64,000 nucleotides of DNA from Acidobacteriota bacterium (GTDB lineage Bacteria > Acidobacteriota > Thermoanaerobaculia > Gp7-AA8): positions 1 to 64,000 of the forward strand of contig JAFATB010000012.1 of assembly GCA_019244185.1 (NCBI GenBank). The letters run 5' to 3'. Below the pieces are notes generated by a model. The model saw only the letters and a list, made by a program, of their open reading frames with translations. It ran no database searches and had not been told where the DNA came from. Position numbers and translations under genes: made by a program. The first letter of the stretch is position 1; each line of letters begins with the position of its first letter. Of the stretch, positions 13,779-21,326 are shown in pieces.

Positions 13779-14351
13779 TTAGTCCTTGCGCATGCGGGTG
13801 CGCGTCGGGGTCGTGGTCGTCGTGTCGGTGTTGGTGCTCTGCGTGTTGGTCTCCTGCACGGACGAGGTCATCGGAACCGTCGTGGTCTCGGTGGTGGTCG
13901 TCGTGGTGGAGGTGCTGGCGGTCGTCGACGGGGTCGTGTAGACCGGCGTGGTGTCGACCGGAGTCGGGGCCGGCGTCGAGTTCATCGTCGTGGTGTCCAT
14001 CGAGGCGGTGGTATCGACCGTGGACGACGAGGTGCTGAGGTCGGCGCTGTTGGTGACGGTGGCGGAGCCGCGCTTCGGAACGACGTTCACGTTGGTGTTG
14101 GTGCCGACGGCGGCGGTGTTGCCGGTGCCCGGAGCGGAGCTCGAGGCATAGACGTTGCCATCGCTGTCAACTTTCGCGGGACCCGGGGCCGGAGCCACGG
14201 TCGACGCGGAGCCGGTCTGCTCCGGACGCACCTGCACGGTGTCGTTGTCGCTGGCGACGCCAGCCTGATTGCTGTGAGCGCACGCGCCGGTGAGAAGGAG
14301 CGCCGCGAAGCCCGCCGCGGCCAGGGTGGAATTCATCATTTTCTTCATCAT
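13779..14351 (-). CDS. Thr/Ser-rich low-complexity lipoprotein
   Basis: Lipobox LLTGA-C; AGGAG SD; Thr-rich body; basic C-terminus RTRMRKD. Confidence 0.75.
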   Translation of the reverse strand: MMKKMMNSTLAAAGFAALLLTGACAHSNQAGVASDNDTVQVRPEQTGSASTVAPAPGPAKVDSDGNVYASSSAPGTGNTAAVGTNTNVNVVPKRGSATVTNSADLSTSSSTVDTTASMDTTTMNSTPAPTPVDTTPVYTTPSTTASTSTTTTTTETTTVPMTSSVQETNTQSTNTDTTTTTPTRTRMRKD

Positions 14352-14489
14352 GATCGTTTGACTCCTCTGATCAGTTTTCTCTTGATTCGTTTGGCCACCG
14401 GTGTGGCCGACGCAGACCTATAGGGCAAAACGCTTGCCTGGTTATTCGCAGAAAGCGGGCGCGGCCGTGGGAGGCGCTAAACTCCTCTC

Positions 14490-15794
14490 GTGTCCGAACC
14501 CCGCGTCTACTCCGTCTCCGAGCTCATTCGCCAGCTGAACCTCGACCTCTATCGCTACAACGACATCTCCGTCGAAGGCGAGGTGTCGAACTTCACGCGC
14601 AGCGCGGCGGGGCATCTGTATTTCTCACTGAAGGACGCGCGCGCGCAGATGCGCGTCGTGCTCTTCGCGACGAACGCGCGCTTCCTGCGCTTCCGCATCG
14701 AGAACGGATTGCAGCTCATCGTGCGCGGGCGCCTCACGATCTACGAGGCGAAAGGCGAGTTTCAGCTGAACGCCGTCGCCGCGGAGCCGGCGGGGCTCGG
14801 CGCGTTGCAGCTCGCGTTCGAGCAGCTCAAAAAGCAGCTCGCGGAAGAAGGACTCTTCGACGCCGCGCGCAAGAAACCGATTCCGATGCTGCCGCAGCGC
14901 ATCGCCGTCGTCACCAGTCCCACCGGCGCCGCGATCCGCGACATTCTTCACGTTCTCGGACGGCGCTTCGAGAATCTCTCGCTGCAGATCTATCCCGTCC
15001 GCGTGCAGGGCGCGAACGCCGCGCGCGAGATCGCGACCGCGATCCGCCATCTCTCGCGCTGGAAGCTGCACGACGTCGTTCTCATCTGCCGCGGCGGAGG
15101 CTCGCTCGAAGATCTGTGGGCATTCAACGAGGAAGCGGTCGCGCGCGCGGTCGCGGCATGCGAGATCCCGACGATCTCCGGCGTCGGCCACGAGACCGAT
15201 TTCACGATCTGCGATTTCGTCGCGGACCTGCGCGCGCCGACGCCGTCCGCCGCCGCGGAGATCGTCATCCGCGCGAAGACGGAGATCTGCATGCAGGTCG
15301 ACACGATGGTACGGCGTGTGCGGCACACCGTCGAATCGCGCGTGCGCAACTATCGCCACGAGCTGCGCCATCTCTCGTCGTCCGATCGATTGGGCATCGT
15401 CCCACGCCGCATCGCCGCCGCGCGCGAACGCCTCGAACGCCGCCGCGTCGCGCTCTTCCGCCTCCTCGACTTTCACGCGCGCCGCATGCGCCGTAGGCTC
15501 GCCGCATGCGAAGAGCCGCTCGCCAAAGTTCCGGCGCGCGTCGCGCGCGAACGCGAGCGGTTGCGTGCGACCGTGGCGACGCTCAACGCCGTCTCGCCGC
15601 TGTCGGTGCTGTCGCGCGGCTACGCGATCGCATTCTCGAAAACGAAGCGCGGACGCAAGCCGATCTTCGACTCCGCGCAGGTGAAGGTCGGCGAGCCGAT
15701 CGAGGTGCAACTGCGCAAGGGAAGGCTCGAGGCCACCGTCGACAGACATACGCTCGGCGTCGAGAGTCTGTGGCCGGAAGTCGACGTGCTATAA
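14490..15794 (+). CDS. xseA: Exodeoxyribonuclease VII large subunit
   Basis: VEGEVSNF, GHLYFSLKD, RGGGSLEDLWAFN, GHETD, RAPTPSAAAE. Confidence 0.96.
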   Translation: MSEPRVYSVSELIRQLNLDLYRYNDISVEGEVSNFTRSAAGHLYFSLKDARAQMRVVLFATNARFLRFRIENGLQLIVRGRLTIYEAKGEFQLNAVAAEPAGLGALQLAFEQLKKQLAEEGLFDAARKKPIPMLPQRIAVVTSPTGAAIRDILHVLGRRFENLSLQIYPVRVQGANAAREIATAIRHLSRWKLHDVVLICRGGGSLEDLWAFNEEAVARAVAACEIPTISGVGHETDFTICDFVADLRAPTPSAAAEIVIRAKTEICMQVDTMVRRVRHTVESRVRNYRHELRHLSSSDRLGIVPRRIAAARERLERRRVALFRLLDFHARRMRRRLAACEEPLAKVPARVARERERLRATVATLNAVSPLSVLSRGYAIAFSKTKRGRKPIFDSAQVKVGEPIEVQLRKGRLEATVDRHTLGVESLWPEVDVL

Positions 15795-15803
15795 CGACGC
15801 GCG

Positions 15804-16073
15804 ATGGCCGTCCGCCCCAAATCGAACGAGTTCGAGAAGGCGTTCCAGCAGCTCGAGAAAATCGTGCAGCGCCTCGAAGCGGAGGAACTGCCGCTCGACG
15901 AATCGCTGCAGCTCTTCGAGGAAGGCATCCGCCTCTCGCGCTTCTGCCATCAGCGCCTCGAAGACGTCGAGAAGAAGATCGAGCTGATTCTCGCCGACGC
16001 GAAAGGGCAGCCGGTCACCGAGCCGTTCGAGGAAGAAGCGGACGATGAGGACAACGCGGGCGACCGCGAGTAG
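15804..16073 (+). CDS. xseB: Exodeoxyribonuclease VII small subunit
   Basis: FEKAFQQLEKIVQRLE...LDESLQLFEEG. Confidence 0.95.
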   Translation: MAVRPKSNEFEKAFQQLEKIVQRLEAEELPLDESLQLFEEGIRLSRFCHQRLEDVEKKIELILADAKGQPVTEPFEEEADDEDNAGDRE

Positions 16074-16076
16074 TCG

Positions 16077-16982
16077 ATGGAGCTGAAGGACTATCTCGCG
16101 TCGCGGCGGACGCTCATCGACGAGACGCTCGCGGCGAATCTTCCCCCCGCGGACACGCACCCGCCGCTCATTCACGAGGCGATGCGCTACGCGATCCTTG
16201 GCGGCGGCAAGCGCGTGCGCCCGATCCTCGCCATCGCCGCCGCGGAAGCCGTCGGCGCCGACGTCGCGCCGCTCCTCGTCCACCTCTGCGCGCTCGAGCT
16301 CATTCACACCTACTCGCTCGTGCACGACGATCTCCCCGCGCTCGACGACGACGATCTGCGCCGCGGACGCAAGACGACGCATGTCGTCTTCGGCGAAGCG
16401 ATCGGGATCCTCGCCGGCGACGCGTTGCTCACCGAGGCGTTCTCGTGGCTCGCGAGACCGCTCGCGAATGTCGACGCCGCGCGGCAGCTGCGCGCGATCG
16501 CCGACGTCGCGCGCGCGGTCGACTCCACCGGCATGATCGGCGGCCAGGTCGCGGATCTCGTCGCCGAACGTTGGGAGCACGCGCCGAAAGACCGCGACTC
16601 GCTGCTGCGCGAGCTCGACTTCATCCACCGCAACAAGACCGGCAAGCTGCTGACCGCGTCCGTGCTCCTCGGCGGCGTGCTCGGCGGCGCGTCGGACGCG
16701 CAGCTCGACGCGCTGAAACGCTACGCCGACGCCCTCGGTCTCGCGTTCCAGATCGTCGACGATCTGCTCGACATCGAAGAGTCGTCCGCCGTCCTCGGCA
16801 AGACCGCGGGGAAGGACGTCGCGCAGGGAAAACTGACCTGGCCGGCGCTGTTGGGCGCCGACCATGCACGTGCCGAGGTCGGGCGGCTGCTCGCGGAGGC
16901 TCTGGAGAACGGTGATAGGATCGCCGGTCCCGTGAATTACCTCGGCGCGATCGCACGTTACATCTGTGAGCGCCGCAGCTAG
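16077..16982 (+). CDS. ispA: Farnesyl/geranylgeranyl diphosphate synthase
   Basis: GGKRVRP, HDDLPALDDDDLRRG, FQIVDDLLD. Confidence 0.94.
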   Translation: MELKDYLASRRTLIDETLAANLPPADTHPPLIHEAMRYAILGGGKRVRPILAIAAAEAVGADVAPLLVHLCALELIHTYSLVHDDLPALDDDDLRRGRKTTHVVFGEAIGILAGDALLTEAFSWLARPLANVDAARQLRAIADVARAVDSTGMIGGQVADLVAERWEHAPKDRDSLLRELDFIHRNKTGKLLTASVLLGGVLGGASDAQLDALKRYADALGLAFQIVDDLLDIEESSAVLGKTAGKDVAQGKLTWPALLGADHARAEVGRLLAEALENGDRIAGPVNYLGAIARYICERRS

Positions 16983-17003
16983 CGCGACAGGGAAATCCGA
17001 ACG

Positions 17004-19034
17004 ATGGCTCGACTACTCGATTCGATCGAAACGCCGCGCGACCTCCGCAAACTCGATCGCAAGCAACTTCCGCAAGTCGCCGAAGAGATCCGCGAGACGA
17101 TCGTCGACGTGGTCTCGCGTATGGGCGGCCACTTCGGCGGCAACCTCGGCGTGGTCGAGCTTACGCTCGCGCTGCACTACGTCTTCGACACGCCGCGCGA
17201 CCAGATCGTCTTCGACACCGGCCACCAGAGCTACCCGCACAAGCTGATCACCGGCCGTCGCGACACGTTCCACACGATTCGCCAGCACAACGGCATCTCC
17301 GGCTTCTGCAAACGCGAGGAGTCGGAGTACGACGTCTTCAACGCCGGTCACGCGTCGACGTCGATCTCCGCGGCGCTCGGCATCGCCGTCGCGCGCGACT
17401 TCCGCAAAGAGGATTACCGCGTGGTGGCCATCATCGGCGACGGCGCGCTCTCCGGCGGTCTCGCGTTCGAAGGCCTCAATCAGGCCGGGCACCTCAAGCG
17501 GCGGATGATGATCGTCCTGAACGACAACGACATGTCGATCTCGACGAACGTCGGCGCGATCTCGGGCTACCTCAACCAGATCATCAAAGGCCAGCGCTAC
17601 AACCAGATGAAGGATCTGGCCAAGGGCGTGATGGATCGCATCCCGCTCGTCGGCGGGAAGCTGCACGGCCTCGCCTCCGACATGGAGCAGGTCTTCAAGC
17701 ACATGATCGTGCCGGGCACGCTCTTCGAGGAGCTCGGCTTCAAGTACCTCGGGCCGTACGACGGCCACGATCTCGAGACGCTCTTGCAGGTCTTCGACGA
17801 GAACAAGGACTACAACGGCCCGGTCCTCATCCACGTCATCACGAAGAAGGGCAAAGGCTACAAGCCGGCCGAGAACAAGCCGATCTGGTCGCACGGCGTC
17901 AGCCCGTTCGACGTCGTGACCGGCGAGGCGCACAAGGCCGCGAAGCCGCTTCCGCCGACGTACACGGCTGTCTTCGCCGACGCGCTCATCGAGATGGCGA
18001 AGCAGGATCCGAAGGTCGTCGCCATCACCGCGGCGATGCCGGACGGCACGGGTCTCGACAAATTCGCGAAGGTCTTTCCCGAGCGCATGTTCGACGTCGG
18101 CATCGCCGAGGAACACGCGGTGACGTTCAGCGGCGGGCTCGCGACGCAGGGCATGAAGCCGGTCGCGGCGATCTACTCGACGTTCCTCCAGCGCGCGTTC
18201 GATCAGGTGTTCCACGACGTCGCGATCATGGATCTGCCGGTCGTGTTCGCGCTCGATCGCGGCGGCATCGCCGGCGCCGACGGCCCGACGCACCACGGCA
18301 TCTACGACATGGCGTATCTGCGGATCTTCCCGAACATGATCTGCATGGCGCCGAAAGACGAGAACGAGCTGCGGCACATGGTCAAGACCGCGCTCGGGAC
18401 CGGCCACCCGACGTCGCTGCGCTACCCGCGCGGCAACGGCGTGGGCGTGCAAATGGACGCGGAGATGCAGTCGCTCCCGGTCGGCAAGGGCGAAGTGATG
18501 CGTGAAGGTCCCGACGCGGCCATCTTCGCCATCGGCACCGAGGTCTGGCCGGCGGTCGAAGCGGCGGAGCTCCTCGCGCGCGACAACATAAACGTCACCG
18601 TTATCAATGCTCGTTTCATCAAGCCTTTAGACGACGAATTGATCGCGAAATACTGTCAGCCGTATTCGCAGGTCTTTACCGTCGAGGAAGGCTCGCTCGC
18701 GGGCGGCTTCGGCGCGGCCGTGCAGGAGCGCTGCGAACAGCTCGGCATCCAGGACGTCCGCTTTCACCGCATCGGCATCCCCGACGAATACGTCCACCAC
18801 GGCGCGCAAGACGTCCTGCGCGCGCAGTACGACCTGCACGCGGAAGGCATCGCACGCCGGGTGCGGGAGGCGGTGGGGGAGAAGCCGAAAGAGGCGCAGC
18901 GCTTCTTCGATGCTGTCGAAGAGATCCGCAAAGCCGTGCCCGACGAGGCGTGGCGCGCGGCGCACGAGCAAGGCATGGATTCCGAGCACATCGACGAGAT
19001 CGTCACCGGCAAACGCCGTGCGGCCGTCAAGTAG
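17004..19034 (+). CDS. dxs: 1-deoxy-D-xylulose-5-phosphate synthase with ~54-aa C-terminal extension
   Basis: GHQSYPHK, GDGALSGG...LNDN, DVGIAEEHAV, YSTFLQRAFDQ, DGPTHHG, RYPRG. Confidence 0.97.
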   Translation: MARLLDSIETPRDLRKLDRKQLPQVAEEIRETIVDVVSRMGGHFGGNLGVVELTLALHYVFDTPRDQIVFDTGHQSYPHKLITGRRDTFHTIRQHNGISGFCKREESEYDVFNAGHASTSISAALGIAVARDFRKEDYRVVAIIGDGALSGGLAFEGLNQAGHLKRRMMIVLNDNDMSISTNVGAISGYLNQIIKGQRYNQMKDLAKGVMDRIPLVGGKLHGLASDMEQVFKHMIVPGTLFEELGFKYLGPYDGHDLETLLQVFDENKDYNGPVLIHVITKKGKGYKPAENKPIWSHGVSPFDVVTGEAHKAAKPLPPTYTAVFADALIEMAKQDPKVVAITAAMPDGTGLDKFAKVFPERMFDVGIAEEHAVTFSGGLATQGMKPVAAIYSTFLQRAFDQVFHDVAIMDLPVVFALDRGGIAGADGPTHHGIYDMAYLRIFPNMICMAPKDENELRHMVKTALGTGHPTSLRYPRGNGVGVQMDAEMQSLPVGKGEVMREGPDAAIFAIGTEVWPAVEAAELLARDNINVTVINARFIKPLDDELIAKYCQPYSQVFTVEEGSLAGGFGAAVQERCEQLGIQDVRFHRIGIPDEYVHHGAQDVLRAQYDLHAEGIARRVREAVGEKPKEAQRFFDAVEEIRKAVPDEAWRAAHEQGMDSEHIDEIVTGKRRAAVK

Positions 19035-19448
19035 ATGACGCGCAGGGTATTCGTCGACACGTGGTTCTTCGCCGCGCTACTGGATGCGCGTGATTCGCAC
19101 CACCGCGAGGCAAGAGCGATCGAGAAACGCTATTCGGCGTACCACCTGCTGACGCACGACGCCGTGCTCACCGAACTGCTCTCGTATTTCTCCGAGTTCG
19201 GCGCGCAGATGCGGCGAGCCGCCGTCGCAATTGTGCGGAACGCATTCACGCAAATGCATGTCGTCCACGCCGACGAGGCGCTCTTCCGCCGCGCCGTCGA
19301 TCTCTACGAAGCCCGCCCGGACAAGGGCTACTCGCTCGCCGACTGCATGTCGATGCTCGTGATGCGCGACCGCGGCATCACCCACATCCTCACGAACGAC
19401 CATCACTTCCGCCAGGAAGGCTTCACCGTCGTTTCCGACGCGCCATGA
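19035..19448 (+). CDS. vapC: PIN-domain (VapC-type) toxin
   Basis: VFVDT, VLTE, SLADCMS, LTNDHHF (acidic PIN tetrad); ATG directly follows the dxs TAG. Confidence 0.9.
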   Translation: MTRRVFVDTWFFAALLDARDSHHREARAIEKRYSAYHLLTHDAVLTELLSYFSEFGAQMRRAAVAIVRNAFTQMHVVHADEALFRRAVDLYEARPDKGYSLADCMSMLVMRDRGITHILTNDHHFRQEGFTVVSDAP

Positions 19449-20206
19449 AGAAGCAGCGGCTCGACCTCGCGGTCGTCGAGCGGGGTCTCGCGGATACGCG
19501 GTCGAAGGCGCAGTCGCTGATCATGGCCCGGCGCGTTCTCGTGAACGGGCAGTTCGTCGACAAAGCCGGCGCGACGGTCAACGAGGACGACGAGGTGCGC
19601 GTCGCGGAGCTCGAGCATCCGTGGGTCGGGCGGGGCGGGATGAAGCTCGCGCACGCGCTCGAGCAGTTCGCGATCGACGTGCGCGGGAAGGTGTGCGCGG
19701 ACATCGGCGCGTCGACCGGCGGTTTCACCGACGTGATGTTGCAGCACGGCGCGGTGAAGGTGTACGCGATCGACGTCGGCTATGGACAGCTCGACGCGTC
19801 GCTGCGCAACGATCCGCGCGTCGTGAATCGCGAGAAAGTGAACGCGCGCTATCTGCAGCCGGAGAACTTCGACGAGCCGATCGACTTCCTCTCCATCGAC
19901 GTGTCGTTCATTCCGCTGAAGCTGATCCTGCCCGCGGTCGTGACATTCCTGCGCGGCGAGCTGGTGGCGCTGATCAAGCCGCAGTTCGAAGTCGGACGGC
20001 ACGACGTCGGAAAGGGCGGAATCGTGCGCGACGACGCGAAACGCGCGGCGGCGGTGGAAGCGGTGGTGGCGTTCGCGCGCGAACTCCAACTAGACGTCCG
20101 CGGGGTGATTGAGAGTCCTGTCAAAGGTGCCGAGGGGAACGTCGAGTTCCTCATGCACGCAACGACAGGTACTCGCGCAATCCCGCACGCCACGACTCCG
20201 GAGTAG
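19445..20206 (+). CDS. tlyA: TlyA rRNA 2'-O-methyltransferase
   Basis: S4 domain KQRLD; RGGMKL, DIGASTGGFTD, DVSFI, LIKPQFE, GNVEF. Confidence 0.95.
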   Translation: MKKQRLDLAVVERGLADTRSKAQSLIMARRVLVNGQFVDKAGATVNEDDEVRVAELEHPWVGRGGMKLAHALEQFAIDVRGKVCADIGASTGGFTDVMLQHGAVKVYAIDVGYGQLDASLRNDPRVVNREKVNARYLQPENFDEPIDFLSIDVSFIPLKLILPAVVTFLRGELVALIKPQFEVGRHDVGKGGIVRDDAKRAAAVEAVVAFARELQLDVRGVIESPVKGAEGNVEFLMHATTGTRAIPHATTPE

Positions 20207-21014
20207 CGCCGGTGAGCTGCTCGTAGCGCCGCGTCGAGAGCACCGAATACGCGGGACGCACAGCCGGGCGCGGGAACTCGTCGGAGGTGACCGGCTTCAC
20301 GGTGACGTCGCTGCCGGCTTCCTCCGCGATCGCGGACGCGAAATCGAACCACGAACACTCGTCTGCATCGGCGTAGTGCACGACGCCGCGCGCGTTCGCA
20401 TCGACGAGCCGCACGATCGCTTGTGCGAGATGCGGCGTGTACGTCGGACGTCCGCGCTGATCGGAGACGACGCGTAGCGGATTCGTTCCCTTGCGGATCT
20501 GATTGCGAATGGCCTCGACGAAGTTCGGGCCGTGCACACCGAAGAGCCACGACGTGCGCACGATGAGGTGTCGCTCGGCGTGCGTGGCCGCGATCTCGCC
20601 GAGGAGCTTCGAGCGGCCGTATGCGGACAGAGGCCGCGTGGTGTCAGCGGGCTCGTACGGCGTGCGCTTGCTGCCGTCGAACACGAAGTCGGTCGAGAGA
20701 TGCACGAGCAGCGCGCCGACCTCGTTCGCGGCGTGCGCGAGGAGCTCGACGGCCGAGCCGTTGATCGCGTTCGCGGCGCTCTCGTCCGTCTCCGCCTGAT
20801 CGACTTTCGTGTACGCGGCGCAGTTGAGAATCACCGCGGGCGTATGTTCGGTGACGCACTGCTCGACGCAGCGTGCATTCGTGACGTCGAGCTCGTCGCG
20901 GCGCAGCGCGACGACGCGTTCACCGCGCGCGTCCAGCGTCGCGCGGAGGTCGTGGCCGACCATTCCGCCGGCGCCGGTGATGAGCCAGGTGCTGGGGGAC
21001 GGCGCGGGAGGCAC
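20151..21014 (-). CDS. rfbD: dTDP-4-dehydrorhamnose reductase
   Basis: TGAGGMVG, NCAAYTKVD, STDFVFDG, YGRSK, DQRGRPT. Confidence 0.94.
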   Translation of the reverse strand: MPPAPSPSTWLITGAGGMVGHDLRATLDARGERVVALRRDELDVTNARCVEQCVTEHTPAVILNCAAYTKVDQAETDESAANAINGSAVELLAHAANEVGALLVHLSTDFVFDGSKRTPYEPADTTRPLSAYGRSKLLGEIAATHAERHLIVRTSWLFGVHGPNFVEAIRNQIRKGTNPLRVVSDQRGRPTYTPHLAQAIVRLVDANARGVVHYADADECSWFDFASAIAEEAGSDVTVKPVTSDEFPRPAVRPAYSVLSTRRYEQLTGATPESWRAGLREYLSLRA

Positions 21015-21208
21015 TACGCGGTCTTGTCGTTCGACGAATCGGACTTCGGAAGCGCCCGGGCGTCGTCACGGCCTTTGTTCAGACCGTCGCGGAAGTTCGA
21101 GATGCCCTCGCCCAGGCCTTTGCCGAGCTGCGGCAGCTTGCTCGCGCCGAAGACCACGATCACGATGACGAGAATGACGAGGAGTTCCGGTAAACCCAGC
21201 GATCCCAT
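21014..21208 (-). CDS. tatA: Twin-arginine translocase TatA
   Basis: [13 protein letters not shown]...[14 protein letters not shown]; GGAGG SD. Confidence 0.92.
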
Positions 21209-21326
21209 GAATTCAGCCTCCGAGGATTGACGCGACAGTGTTGCATAGAACATCGCCGCGCGGAAATGCGTTCCAAAGGAAGGAAAAGCCGCATGCCGCG
21301 CTGCTACCATGCGCGGCGCAAACCCG

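Follow-up and report, generated by a model that had tools for sequence, protein, structure and literature searches.

What is a 53-residue extension doing at the end of an essential enzyme, directly in front of a gene for a PIN-domain protein? The question is raised by the dxs locus of an Acidobacteriota bacterium, which lies in the window, the whole stretch of 64,000 nucleotides that was analysed. The earlier note proposed that a toxin-antitoxin module had been captured here with its antitoxin grafted onto DXS, and this proposal is now largely supported by the homology of the tail, its co-occurrence with the PIN gene and a model of the complex between the two. The likely answer is that a VapBC-type type II module sits between dxs and tlyA, with its toxin-binding C-terminal module forming the last 53 residues of the sole DXS.

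The usual gene string, xseA-xseB-ispA-dxs-tlyA, is present in the window, as identified by Pfam on the ORFs, and dxs, the PIN gene and tlyA abut or overlap their neighbours (Table 1). The layout is as the earlier note described it. The ATG of the PIN gene (19035) adjoins the TAG of dxs (19032-19034), the PIN stop and the tlyA start have an ATGA in common, and with 0 intergenic bases between dxs and the PIN gene there is no space for a separate vapB. Among the PIN-bearing loci of the genus that were examined, the dxs stop overlaps the PIN ATG by one base in 12 of 16 and abuts it directly in the other four. Translation of the PIN gene may be coupled to that of dxs; no GGAGG-type ribosome-binding site is seen upstream of the PIN ATG. 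A scan of positions 14000-21300, which gives weak evidence only, found no promoter-like sites and no terminator-like sites on the + strand; in the sole RNA run, 0.04 of the sampled words were present.

Table 1. Features of the dxs locus, in positions of the window
Feature	Position	Strand	Evidence
xseA	14490-15794	+	Pfam Exonuc_VII_L, E 6.5e-93
xseB	15804-16073	+	Pfam Exonuc_VII_S, E 1.1e-21
ispA-like polyprenyl synthetase	16077-16982	+	Pfam polyprenyl_synt, E 1.4e-55
dxs, one ORF, 676 aa	17004-19034	+	
DXS catalytic core, residues 1-623	17004-18872	+	TIGR00204 and Pfam
Antitoxin-like DXS tail, residues 624-676, and TAG stop	18873-19034	+	
VPDEAW motif of the tail	18936-18953		
HIDEIVTG motif of the tail	18987-19010		
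dxs stop/PIN start junction, TAG ATG	19032-19037	+	read from the sequence
PIN-domain (VapC-like) gene, 137 aa	19035-19448	+	PF01850, E 3e-11
Putative catalytic D8	19056-19058		
Putative catalytic E47	19173-19175		
Putative catalytic D103	19341-19343		
Putative catalytic D122	19398-19400		
ATGA of PIN stop and tlyA start	19445-19448		
tlyA-like rRNA methyltransferase gene	19445-20206	+	Pfam S4, E 4.7e-12; FtsJ, E 6.2e-41
rmlD-like gene, convergent; end of the operon	20151-21014	-	

The core of the dxs product is that of a full DXS. TIGR00204 (dxs) matches residues 7-623 over its full length with 844.9 bits, above the curated cut-off of 465.95, and the three transketolase-like Pfam domains, DXP_synthase_N, Transket_pyr and Transketolase_C, are all found, the last of them stopping at residue 616. 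The translation also has a GDG...NDN pattern, which we take to be the thiamine-diphosphate motif. A second DXS over the cut-off is absent, so that the enzyme is single copy in this 98.9%-complete genome, and Dxr is present. That the reading frame runs on where DXS similarity ends, as the earlier note had seen, is borne out by the model, which ends at residue 623 and is followed by 53 in-frame residues.

These residues comprise a variable linker (624-631), a helix at about 632-645 and a basic stretch at the end. The tail peptides are about 25-50% identical across genomes, and P646, D664, E665 and G669 are invariant or near-invariant in the tail alignment, A1. Residues 624-676 have no Pfam match below E 0.01 and no NCBIfam match, and a profile search of the tail against solved structures gave no credible relative, only hits at chance level (centrin, E 0.006, and designed coils). 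A word-indexed protein search at near lengths with the tail alone produced no candidate; this method being too insensitive, a profile search was used instead.

The PIN protein has VapC20 as its best solved relative, both by profile (E 4e-19, 72.4 bits, positions 3-132) and by single sequence (E 3.7e-8, residues 4-133 aligned), and by sequence it belongs to the VapC20-like subfamily. Residues D8, E47, D96, D103 and D122 are invariant among 20 aligned PIN sequences. The locus therefore has the PIN toxin with four conserved acidic active-site residues that is expected of a VapBC pair. It also has an antitoxin-like coding stretch immediately upstream that abuts or overlaps the toxin gene, but this stretch is the 3′ end of dxs and not a gene of its own. 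The N-terminal DNA-binding domain (RHH, AbrB, Phd or HTH) is missing, the N-terminal part being DXS, and because of this absence the pair is classified as a variant of VapBC rather than as a plain member.

The relatives of the tail are more informative than its domain searches. The C-terminal motif given in the earlier note is real, since small proteins that stand alone and end in the module of the tail are picked up by the tail profile. Searched against 1.84 billion representatives, it gave 35 matches at E<=1e-3. Fourteen of these are stand-alone proteins, 60-130 aa long, whose C-terminus carries the match, two of them having ribbon-helix-helix-like N-termini, while seven are DXS fragments and ten are short or chimeric fragments; four repeat proteins (P0008, P0015, P0018 and P0019), in which the match runs through the repeats, were judged spurious. 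At loci whose context could be inspected, the stand-alone relatives lie directly upstream of PIN genes of the same subfamily and overlap them, which is what a search proposed in the earlier note was meant to check. In two Chloroflexi MAGs (L052, L053) and two other Acidobacteriota families (L071, L072), such module-bearing small proteins overlap PINs to which the PIN profile, A2, gives 123-138 bits. In the host's own family, the partners of paralogous PINs end in the same module. A comparison of A1 with nine such C-termini by hhalign gave a probability of 98.1% and an E of 6.8e-14 over 37 columns. Partners of 270-355 aa that accompany sister PINs carry the same tail; a Pfam scan and a protein atlas returned nothing usable for these large partners. 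Related loci were searched with a five-row alignment, A4, which gave 16 loci. Four of them (L054, L064, L066 and L067) are uninformative on the tail, the match being confined to the N-terminal part of their small proteins, and another (L056) has two tail-like small genes with no PIN found beside them. The tail and the C-terminal module of antitoxins that are paired with the same PIN subfamily are thus homologous.

A predicted complex of tail and PIN, another check put forward in the earlier note, came out well above its controls. The pair scored 0.75 (runs of 0.75, 0.75 and 0.77), against 0.00 for the best of three controls; the score is a model's confidence. In the calibration, 58 solved complexes out of 80 and 2 mismatched pairs out of 110 attained this mark; the counts are only a rough guide here, because our own alignments were used. 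At least 89% of the contacts agree between runs, partner pLDDT is at least 74, and the pLDDT of the tail drops to 39 when an unrelated protein replaces PIN. The modelled interface takes in PIN residues 9-10, 47 and 121, beside the catalytic D8, E47 and D122. A full-length DXS fold obtained from eight sequences (mean pLDDT 44.1, pTM 0.30) is too poor to judge the packing of the tail on DXS.

The fusion is in frame and conserved. Among the 25 genomes of the genus, which were searched first, an in-frame tail followed by a PIN gene is found in 22 of the 22 that bear the PIN. Across the host's family (124 genomes, 40 genera), profile A1 has matches at E<=0.01 in 65 genomes, which represent 13 genera, and most of these matches fall in open frames some 673-890 aa long. 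Cross-reading of the tail and PIN searches shows a same-strand PIN match within a few bases after the tail in 58 genomes, in one of which (G062) the PIN is cut by the contig end. A divergent tail in G054, missed by the profile, was spotted by eye. The total is thus 59 of 124 genomes in which a PIN gene comes after the DXS tail, which bears out the expected co-occurrence of tail and vapC across relatives, with the reservation that the counts come from related genomes and the events are not independent. Three weak tail matches are spurious: that in G068, one of the 65, lies inside a DnaK-like ORF, another inside a sugar-transferase-like ORF (G010:C60), and the third (G139:C192) is a protein of 77 aa that represents a different type of antitoxin. 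That tail subtypes vary together with PIN clades was dropped as evidence because this tracks phylogeny. When 401 genomes were sampled from the phylum, DXS with the tail came up in the host's family alone, in three of its eight sampled genomes.

The history of losses has a direction. According to the earlier note, a tail in DXS without vapC would speak against a captured pair; such tails do occur, in four genomes, yet three of the four hold a PIN stub between dxs and tlyA. The PIN is wholly gone in G013, whereas in G139, G098 and G130 in-frame internal deletions, a different one in each, have reduced it to stubs of 42, 24 and 52 aa, and these are therefore read as secondary toxin losses. Loss of the toxin with the antitoxin kept is the order predicted for a toxin-antitoxin pair. 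The tail motif is intact in all four genomes, and in three of them there is no other PIN of the same subfamily at E<=1e-10; an intact tail in these genomes could reflect recent loss or a PIN-independent role of the tail. An intact dxs-linked PIN without the tail was not seen, two of the roughly 59 tail-less genomes having been inspected. G014 and G020 have neither tail nor PIN, and their DXS ends 18-20 residues past the core. Two further genomes (G136 and G137) have frameshifts in dxs, PIN and tlyA alike and were excluded from the loss counts as error-prone assemblies. In a 49-row tree from a quick search, 29 dxs-linked PINs form one group (SH-aLRT 90), which suggests a single capture of the dxs-linked PIN. 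The evolutionary signature is clean, with four losses of the toxin and none in which the antitoxin went first.

The best reading of these features is that DXS takes the place of the DNA-binding domain of an antitoxin that has no gene of its own. Ribosomes finishing dxs would re-initiate on the PIN gene, and synthesis of the toxin would therefore accompany that of its DXS-borne inhibitor and probably not outpace it. The tail, which is probably disordered alone, would fold onto PIN and mask its active site, and the RNase would be kept silent within the resulting DXS-PIN complex. PIN would become free and active only when the tail is clipped, or when DXS is degraded or becomes scarce relative to PIN. 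By its likeness to VapC20, PIN may have the ribosome as a target, although even closely related PINs differ in what they cut. Once fused, the pair would be locked in, as the toxin can go and the tail cannot go first.

The tail might instead serve for docking and not for inhibition, holding a domesticated PIN RNase on DXS as a subunit with a housekeeping or regulatory role; PIN might then act as a modulator of DXS, or the RNase might be localised through DXS, and there would be no toxin-antitoxin behaviour. This we consider quite unlikely. An arrangement that is stable in 13 genera within a housekeeping operon, that lacks a DNA-binding domain and hence classical autoregulation, and whose tail persists where PIN is gone would suit a docking role, but homologues of the tail form the C-termini of the canonical small antitoxins of this PIN subfamily, some of them RHH proteins, and the tail's modelled contacts lie beside the catalytic residues of PIN. 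At least four losses of PIN also argue against an indispensable housekeeping function. There is likewise only a slim chance that the working antitoxin is a free peptide, made from an internal GTG start near residue 624 or by proteolytic release, with the link to DXS incidental. Of the 19 tail-bearing sequences of the genus, 13 have a GGGAG ahead of an in-frame GTG, the window among them (GTG at 18873). But the GTG is absent in the other six and is a common Val codon in such GC-rich DNA, and the GGGAG belongs to the codons of conserved DXS residues, with a spacing of only about 3 nt to the GTG. Moreover, core and tail are never split by a stop in the 59 genomes.

It is very improbable that the tail is an extension peculiar to the DXS of this lineage, has an independent function and lies next to PIN by coincidence. 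Its persistence in the four PIN-less genomes and its want of a Pfam family would be in keeping with such an extension, but the antitoxin homology, the strict adjacency in 59 genomes and the complex model would then all have to be coincidence. Regarding the sequence itself, in contigs of runs X1, X2 and X3, positions 18500-19420 have a depth of 39-98 and show 0 other letters and 0 gaps, these runs being possibly the source samples and so not independent, and a depth-3 contig of X4 over 18784-18978 has no difference; a lost dxs stop near 18870, for which the earlier note wanted the reads checked, is not seen in the contigs of any of the four runs. An assembly or sequencing artefact, be it a lost stop or a chimeric join, has next to no chance of being the explanation, since nothing speaks for it except that the window comes from an assembly of 26 contigs, three runs agree with the sequence even if they are the source samples, and the same in-frame fusion in 59 genomes with diverged sequences refutes it for practical purposes.

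If the tail is the toxin-binding module of a captured VapBC-type pair, a tentative and rather doubtful extension is that DXS serves as the sensor domain of the pair, a change in its state exposing or removing the tail and freeing a ribosome-cutting RNase. The triggers could be ligand-driven monomerisation, aggregation, or proteolysis such as is reported from the feedback control of DXS in other organisms. Were this so, translation capacity would be wired directly to the supply of precursors of isoprenoids, thiamine and pyridoxal, as a metabolic checkpoint derived from a captured addiction module, and the partners of 270-355 aa that accompany sister PINs would represent further sensor domains with the same plug.

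DXS is an essential enzyme of vitamin and isoprenoid precursors, here in soil Acidobacteriota, and a neutralising module that has apparently moved onto it and been kept across at least 13 genera is an unusual architecture. No report of a DXS-antitoxin fusion was found by full-text searches of literature outside subscription journals and supplements. The toxin-binding peptide looks portable, a plug able to make an unrelated protein an antitoxin, and the 53-residue tail is a possible tag to recruit or silence this PIN. Systems of this kind would escape surveys for small upstream genes. They also offer a test case for whether chromosomal toxin-antitoxin pairs are regulators or entrenched selfish elements, and for whether proteolysis of the antitoxin is needed for toxin release.

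The closest solved relative of the PIN by sequence is the toxin of VapBC20 from Mycobacterium tuberculosis (VapC20, PDB 5wzf/5wz4). VapB20 is a separate small protein, whereas the putative neutralising part here is the C-terminus of DXS. The DXS tail has its module in common with the canonical pairs of other Acidobacteriota families (L071, L072), of Chloroflexi MAGs (L052, L053) and of the host's family (L040). The module consists of a helix, P-[DE]-E, a short loop, D-x-x-[VL]-Y-G and a basic end. The PINs of these pairs are of the same subfamily as the dxs-linked PIN (123-140 bits against A2), and the antitoxin stop overlaps the PIN start, as at the dxs-PIN junction. The N-terminal part is what differs, being a 20-50-residue RHH-like or helical domain in the canonical pairs and a 623-residue thiamine-diphosphate enzyme here. 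Antitoxins are usually small, labile, DNA-binding proteins; in contrast to the lability of the classical ones, DXS is a large housekeeping enzyme. Ordinary DXS (TIGR00204) has the same three domains over the same full length and ends about where the model ends, while the present protein has 53 more residues. Departures from the rule of two small genes are known from the fused toxin-antitoxin proteins EzeT and CapRel and from toxin-antitoxin-chaperone systems, in which the antitoxin carries an extension. All of these resemble the DXS tail in the covalent fusion of a neutralising element. In those systems, however, the fusion is to the toxin or to a dedicated chaperone-addiction segment, while here it is to an essential metabolic enzyme and the toxin is a separate gene.

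The DXS of the window carries a C-terminal tail, and the gene for a PIN-domain protein follows it directly. The curated DXS model TIGR00204 covers residues 7-623 of the dxs product (844.9 bits, where the cut-off is 465.95) and the Pfam domains extend to residue 616; the tail, residues 624-676, has no Pfam match below E 0.01 and no NCBIfam match. The genome is 98.9% complete, has Dxr, and contains no second DXS above the cut-off; this one is therefore the housekeeping DXS of the MEP pathway and not a spare copy. The dxs gene belongs to a tight gene string, with a convergent rmlD-like gene 3' of its tlyA-like member. A scan of 14000-21300 found no promoter-like site, and no terminator-like site on the + strand. 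The ATG of the PIN gene lies directly 3' of the dxs TAG (19032-19034), which is all that separates the two genes in their common reading frame, and ATGA is shared by the PIN TGA and the tlyA start, so that there is no space for a separate antitoxin gene. This layout is exactly what the earlier note had read from the sequence.

Features of the dxs region in the window and of loci with related modules in other genomes
Feature	Sequence	Positions	Strand	Remarks
190-aa ORF	window	13779-14351	-	immediately 5' of xseA, in opposite orientation; signal-peptide- or lipoprotein-like start, long Thr/Ser/Asn-rich low-complexity body
xseA	window	14490-15794	+	tight gene string
xseB	window	15804-16073	+	tight gene string
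ispA-like polyprenyl synthetase	window	16077-16982	+	tight gene string
dxs	window	17004-19034	+	product of 676 aa
PIN-domain gene	window	19035-19448	+	between dxs and tlyA-like gene
tlyA-like S4/FtsJ methyltransferase	window	19445-20206	+	last of gene string
270-355-aa protein family	L013	689-1501		overlaps PIN of this subfamily
270-355-aa protein family	L014	1896-2828	-	overlaps PIN of this subfamily
270-355-aa protein family	L038	1015-1818	-	overlaps PIN of this subfamily
270-355-aa protein family	L039	1741-2805	-	overlaps PIN of this subfamily
734-aa DXS with tail module twice in tandem	L076	59-2260		G105, sister genus; intact PIN follows
two tandem small genes with tail-like module	L056	1236-1716		Dehalococcoidia MAG

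The arrangement is not an artefact and is not limited to one genome. A dxs stop lost near 18870 had been a concern; contigs of three sequencing runs, which may be source samples of the assembly, cover 18500-19420 with 0 differences. A search with the PIN protein retrieved 22 of 41 related genomes, namely the window's own and 21 of the 24 others of its genus, and none of the 16 outside the genus. The order dxs, in-frame tail, PIN, tlyA is present in all 22 by tblastn and ORF reading, four of the loci having been missed by pattern reading and recovered by profile search. The genus loci compared share with the window about 79-88% of residues in the DXS core and 78-86% in TlyA; the PIN reaches about 50-58%, and the tail, in those loci where tblastn could align it, about 37-51% (24-48% in the alignment of DXS tails, A1), so the inserted pair evolves much faster than its neighbours.

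In a family survey of 124 genomes from 40 genera, the A1 profile matches 65 genomes in 13 genera, mostly within open frames of about 673-890 aa, and the PIN profile, A2, matches 71 at E<=1e-10. Comparison of the two tables gives 58 genomes, one of them cut by a contig end, in which a same-strand PIN match follows the tail within a few bases; G054, whose PIN lies behind a divergent tail missed by A1, brings the total to 59 of 124 and bears out the co-occurrence anticipated at the outset. Two of the 58 (G002 and G024, the latter one row of A1 and A2) are unpublished genomes, and no claim is made on them alone. Matching public records are titled, for example, 'Thermoanaerobaculia bacterium' or 'uncultured Acidobacteriota bacterium'. 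A spurious tail match in G068 was dropped, and G136 and G137 were set aside for frameshifts throughout the locus; in these few-contig assemblies (loci L035 and L036) dxs, PIN and tlyA each lie in two or three frame-shifted pieces, probably through assembly indel errors rather than as pseudogenes. Across a phylum sample of 401 genomes, the DXS-borne tail is found only in this family, in 3 of its 8 sampled genomes.

The tail itself is a module that also ends stand-alone proteins. When 1.84 billion representative proteins were searched with a profile built from 19 tails, 35 matched at E<=1e-3. Of these, 7 are C-terminal pieces of DXS, 10 are short or chimeric fragments, 4 are repeat proteins regarded as spurious, and 14 are stand-alone proteins, 60-130 aa long, that carry the match C-terminally. 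Among the 14, two have ribbon-helix-helix (RHH)-like N-termini and two (P0026 and P0035) contain the module twice. The library is without genomic context, which was taken from other loci. In two Chloroflexi MAGs (L052 and L053) a module protein of 70-80 aa overlaps a PIN gene (135-138 bits against the PIN profile), and in other Acidobacteriota families (L071 and L072) a small protein ending in the module, RHH-like at its N-terminus in L071, does the same (123-136 bits). Paralogous PINs in the window's own family, 31-44% identical to the window PIN, have as upstream partners a 55-aa protein and 270-355-aa proteins of unknown family, which end in the same module as the DXS tail, as well as RHH proteins and what we take to be DUF104-like proteins, with a small beta-rich domain, which end in a related shorter motif. 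Aligned profile to profile with nine C-termini of this kind, the DXS tails score a probability of 98.1% (E 6.8e-14, 37 aligned columns). The module begins with an amphipathic helix, after which come P-[DE]-E-x-[WL], a short loop, D-x-x-[VL]-Y-G and, last, basic residues. Thus the motif that the earlier note had given for small proteins preceding this PIN subfamily is recovered by both kinds of comparison, and the proposed search with the tail alone leads to stand-alone proteins, whose counterparts in the loci inspected lie next to PINs.

Related proteins show several further forms. The 270-355-aa partners, which have no Pfam match and retrieve only hypothetical proteins from a protein atlas (score 0.77), share a conserved N-terminal region and a predicted PIN-binding-type module at the C-terminus, and may be large antitoxins or sensors. 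In P0014, a 65-aa metagenomic fragment, the tail continues into a PIN N-terminus without an intervening stop; the fragment may come from a variant with DXS tail and PIN as one chain, or contain a sequencing error. No PIN was found at E<=0.01 beside the tandem small genes of L056, and the ORF after them looks RtcB-like by motif. More distant PIN paralogs of the family (L041-L043, L044-L051) have partners with DUF104-like or RHH N-termini that end in W-S-x-N-L-D-x-Y-L-Y or N-H-D-R-Y-L, and an aromatic-rich C-terminal plug may be common to a wider set of antitoxins.

The window PIN retains the four catalytic acidic residues D8, E47, D103 and D122, which are invariant in 20 aligned sequences; among solved structures, VapC20 of M. 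tuberculosis is the nearest to it (profile E 4e-19). Prediction of the tail-PIN complex from our own tail and PIN alignments, a check the earlier note had proposed, gave a score of 0.75 in the median run, while the best of three controls scored 0.00. Of 80 solved complexes, 58 score this high, as do 2 of 110 mismatched pairs; these counts apply only roughly here, where our own alignments were used. The runs have at least 89% of contacts in common, with a partner pLDDT of at least 74. The modelled tail helix lies on PIN residues 12-22 and 58-74, and the interface also takes in residues 9-10, 47 and 121, neighbours of the catalytic residues. The tail pLDDT drops to 39 when an unrelated protein replaces the PIN, which fits folding on binding. 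The tail profile found no relative among solved structures, so the model probably does not reproduce this particular interface from a known one; generic VapBC complexes, however, are well represented there. As a prediction, binding of the PIN by the tail is supported.

The strict pairing of tail and vapC expected by the earlier note does not hold in four genomes (G013, G139, G098 and G130), which have a tail without a working PIN, although three of them keep a PIN stub. In G013, tlyA is immediately 3' of the tail. The other three (L032, L033 and L034) have different in-frame internal deletions that leave stubs of 42, 24 and 52 aa, with the start still beside the dxs stop and the stop still over the tlyA start; this preserved frame suggests that translation of tlyA may depend on ribosomes arriving from upstream. 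The reverse case, an intact PIN linked to a tail-less dxs, was not seen, two of about 59 tail-less genomes having been inspected. A toxin-antitoxin dependency would predict such an asymmetry, seen here in genomes that are kin. Both tail and PIN are absent from G014 and G020, and the short DXS end of G020 resembles the first residues of the tail linker, which suggests that one deletion took out both. In a quick-search tree of 49 PINs, with identical sequences merged and partial PINs below 115 profile positions (among them that of L072) left out, the 29 dxs-linked PINs form one group (SH-aLRT 90), whose sister is a G130 paralog with a 355-aa partner whose end closely resembles the DXS tail. The tree agrees with one capture event and, after it, vertical inheritance with losses.

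It is established that DXS and tail are fused, that the tail has homologues, that the PIN is intact and that the genes abut; beyond this, a mode of working can be proposed. The PIN would be translated by re-initiation after dxs; all 16 junctions examined show a 1-nt overlap or direct abutment. Each DXS chain would provide one tail that folds over one PIN and blocks it. Transcriptional autoregulation would be absent because the DNA-binding domain is gone, and active toxin would appear only when tails are removed or DXS falls short. The pair may also be an entrenched selfish module, able to lose its toxin but not its antidote, and nothing more. The tail that is still intact in PIN-less genomes, and a candidate internal GTG start in 13 of 19 sequences, either count against the toxin-antitoxin reading or leave it undecided.

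Full-text searches, with subscription journals and supplementary files outside their reach, yielded neither a description of DXS with an antitoxin module nor one that names DXS together with the PIN-domain and antitoxin terms used. The DXS tail and its PIN resemble VapBC pairs in their proposed working, in the toxin and in gene order. However, the antitoxin of VapBC has a DNA-binding domain, a defining feature that the DXS-borne candidate antitoxin lacks, and the pair is therefore a variant of VapBC rather than a plain member.
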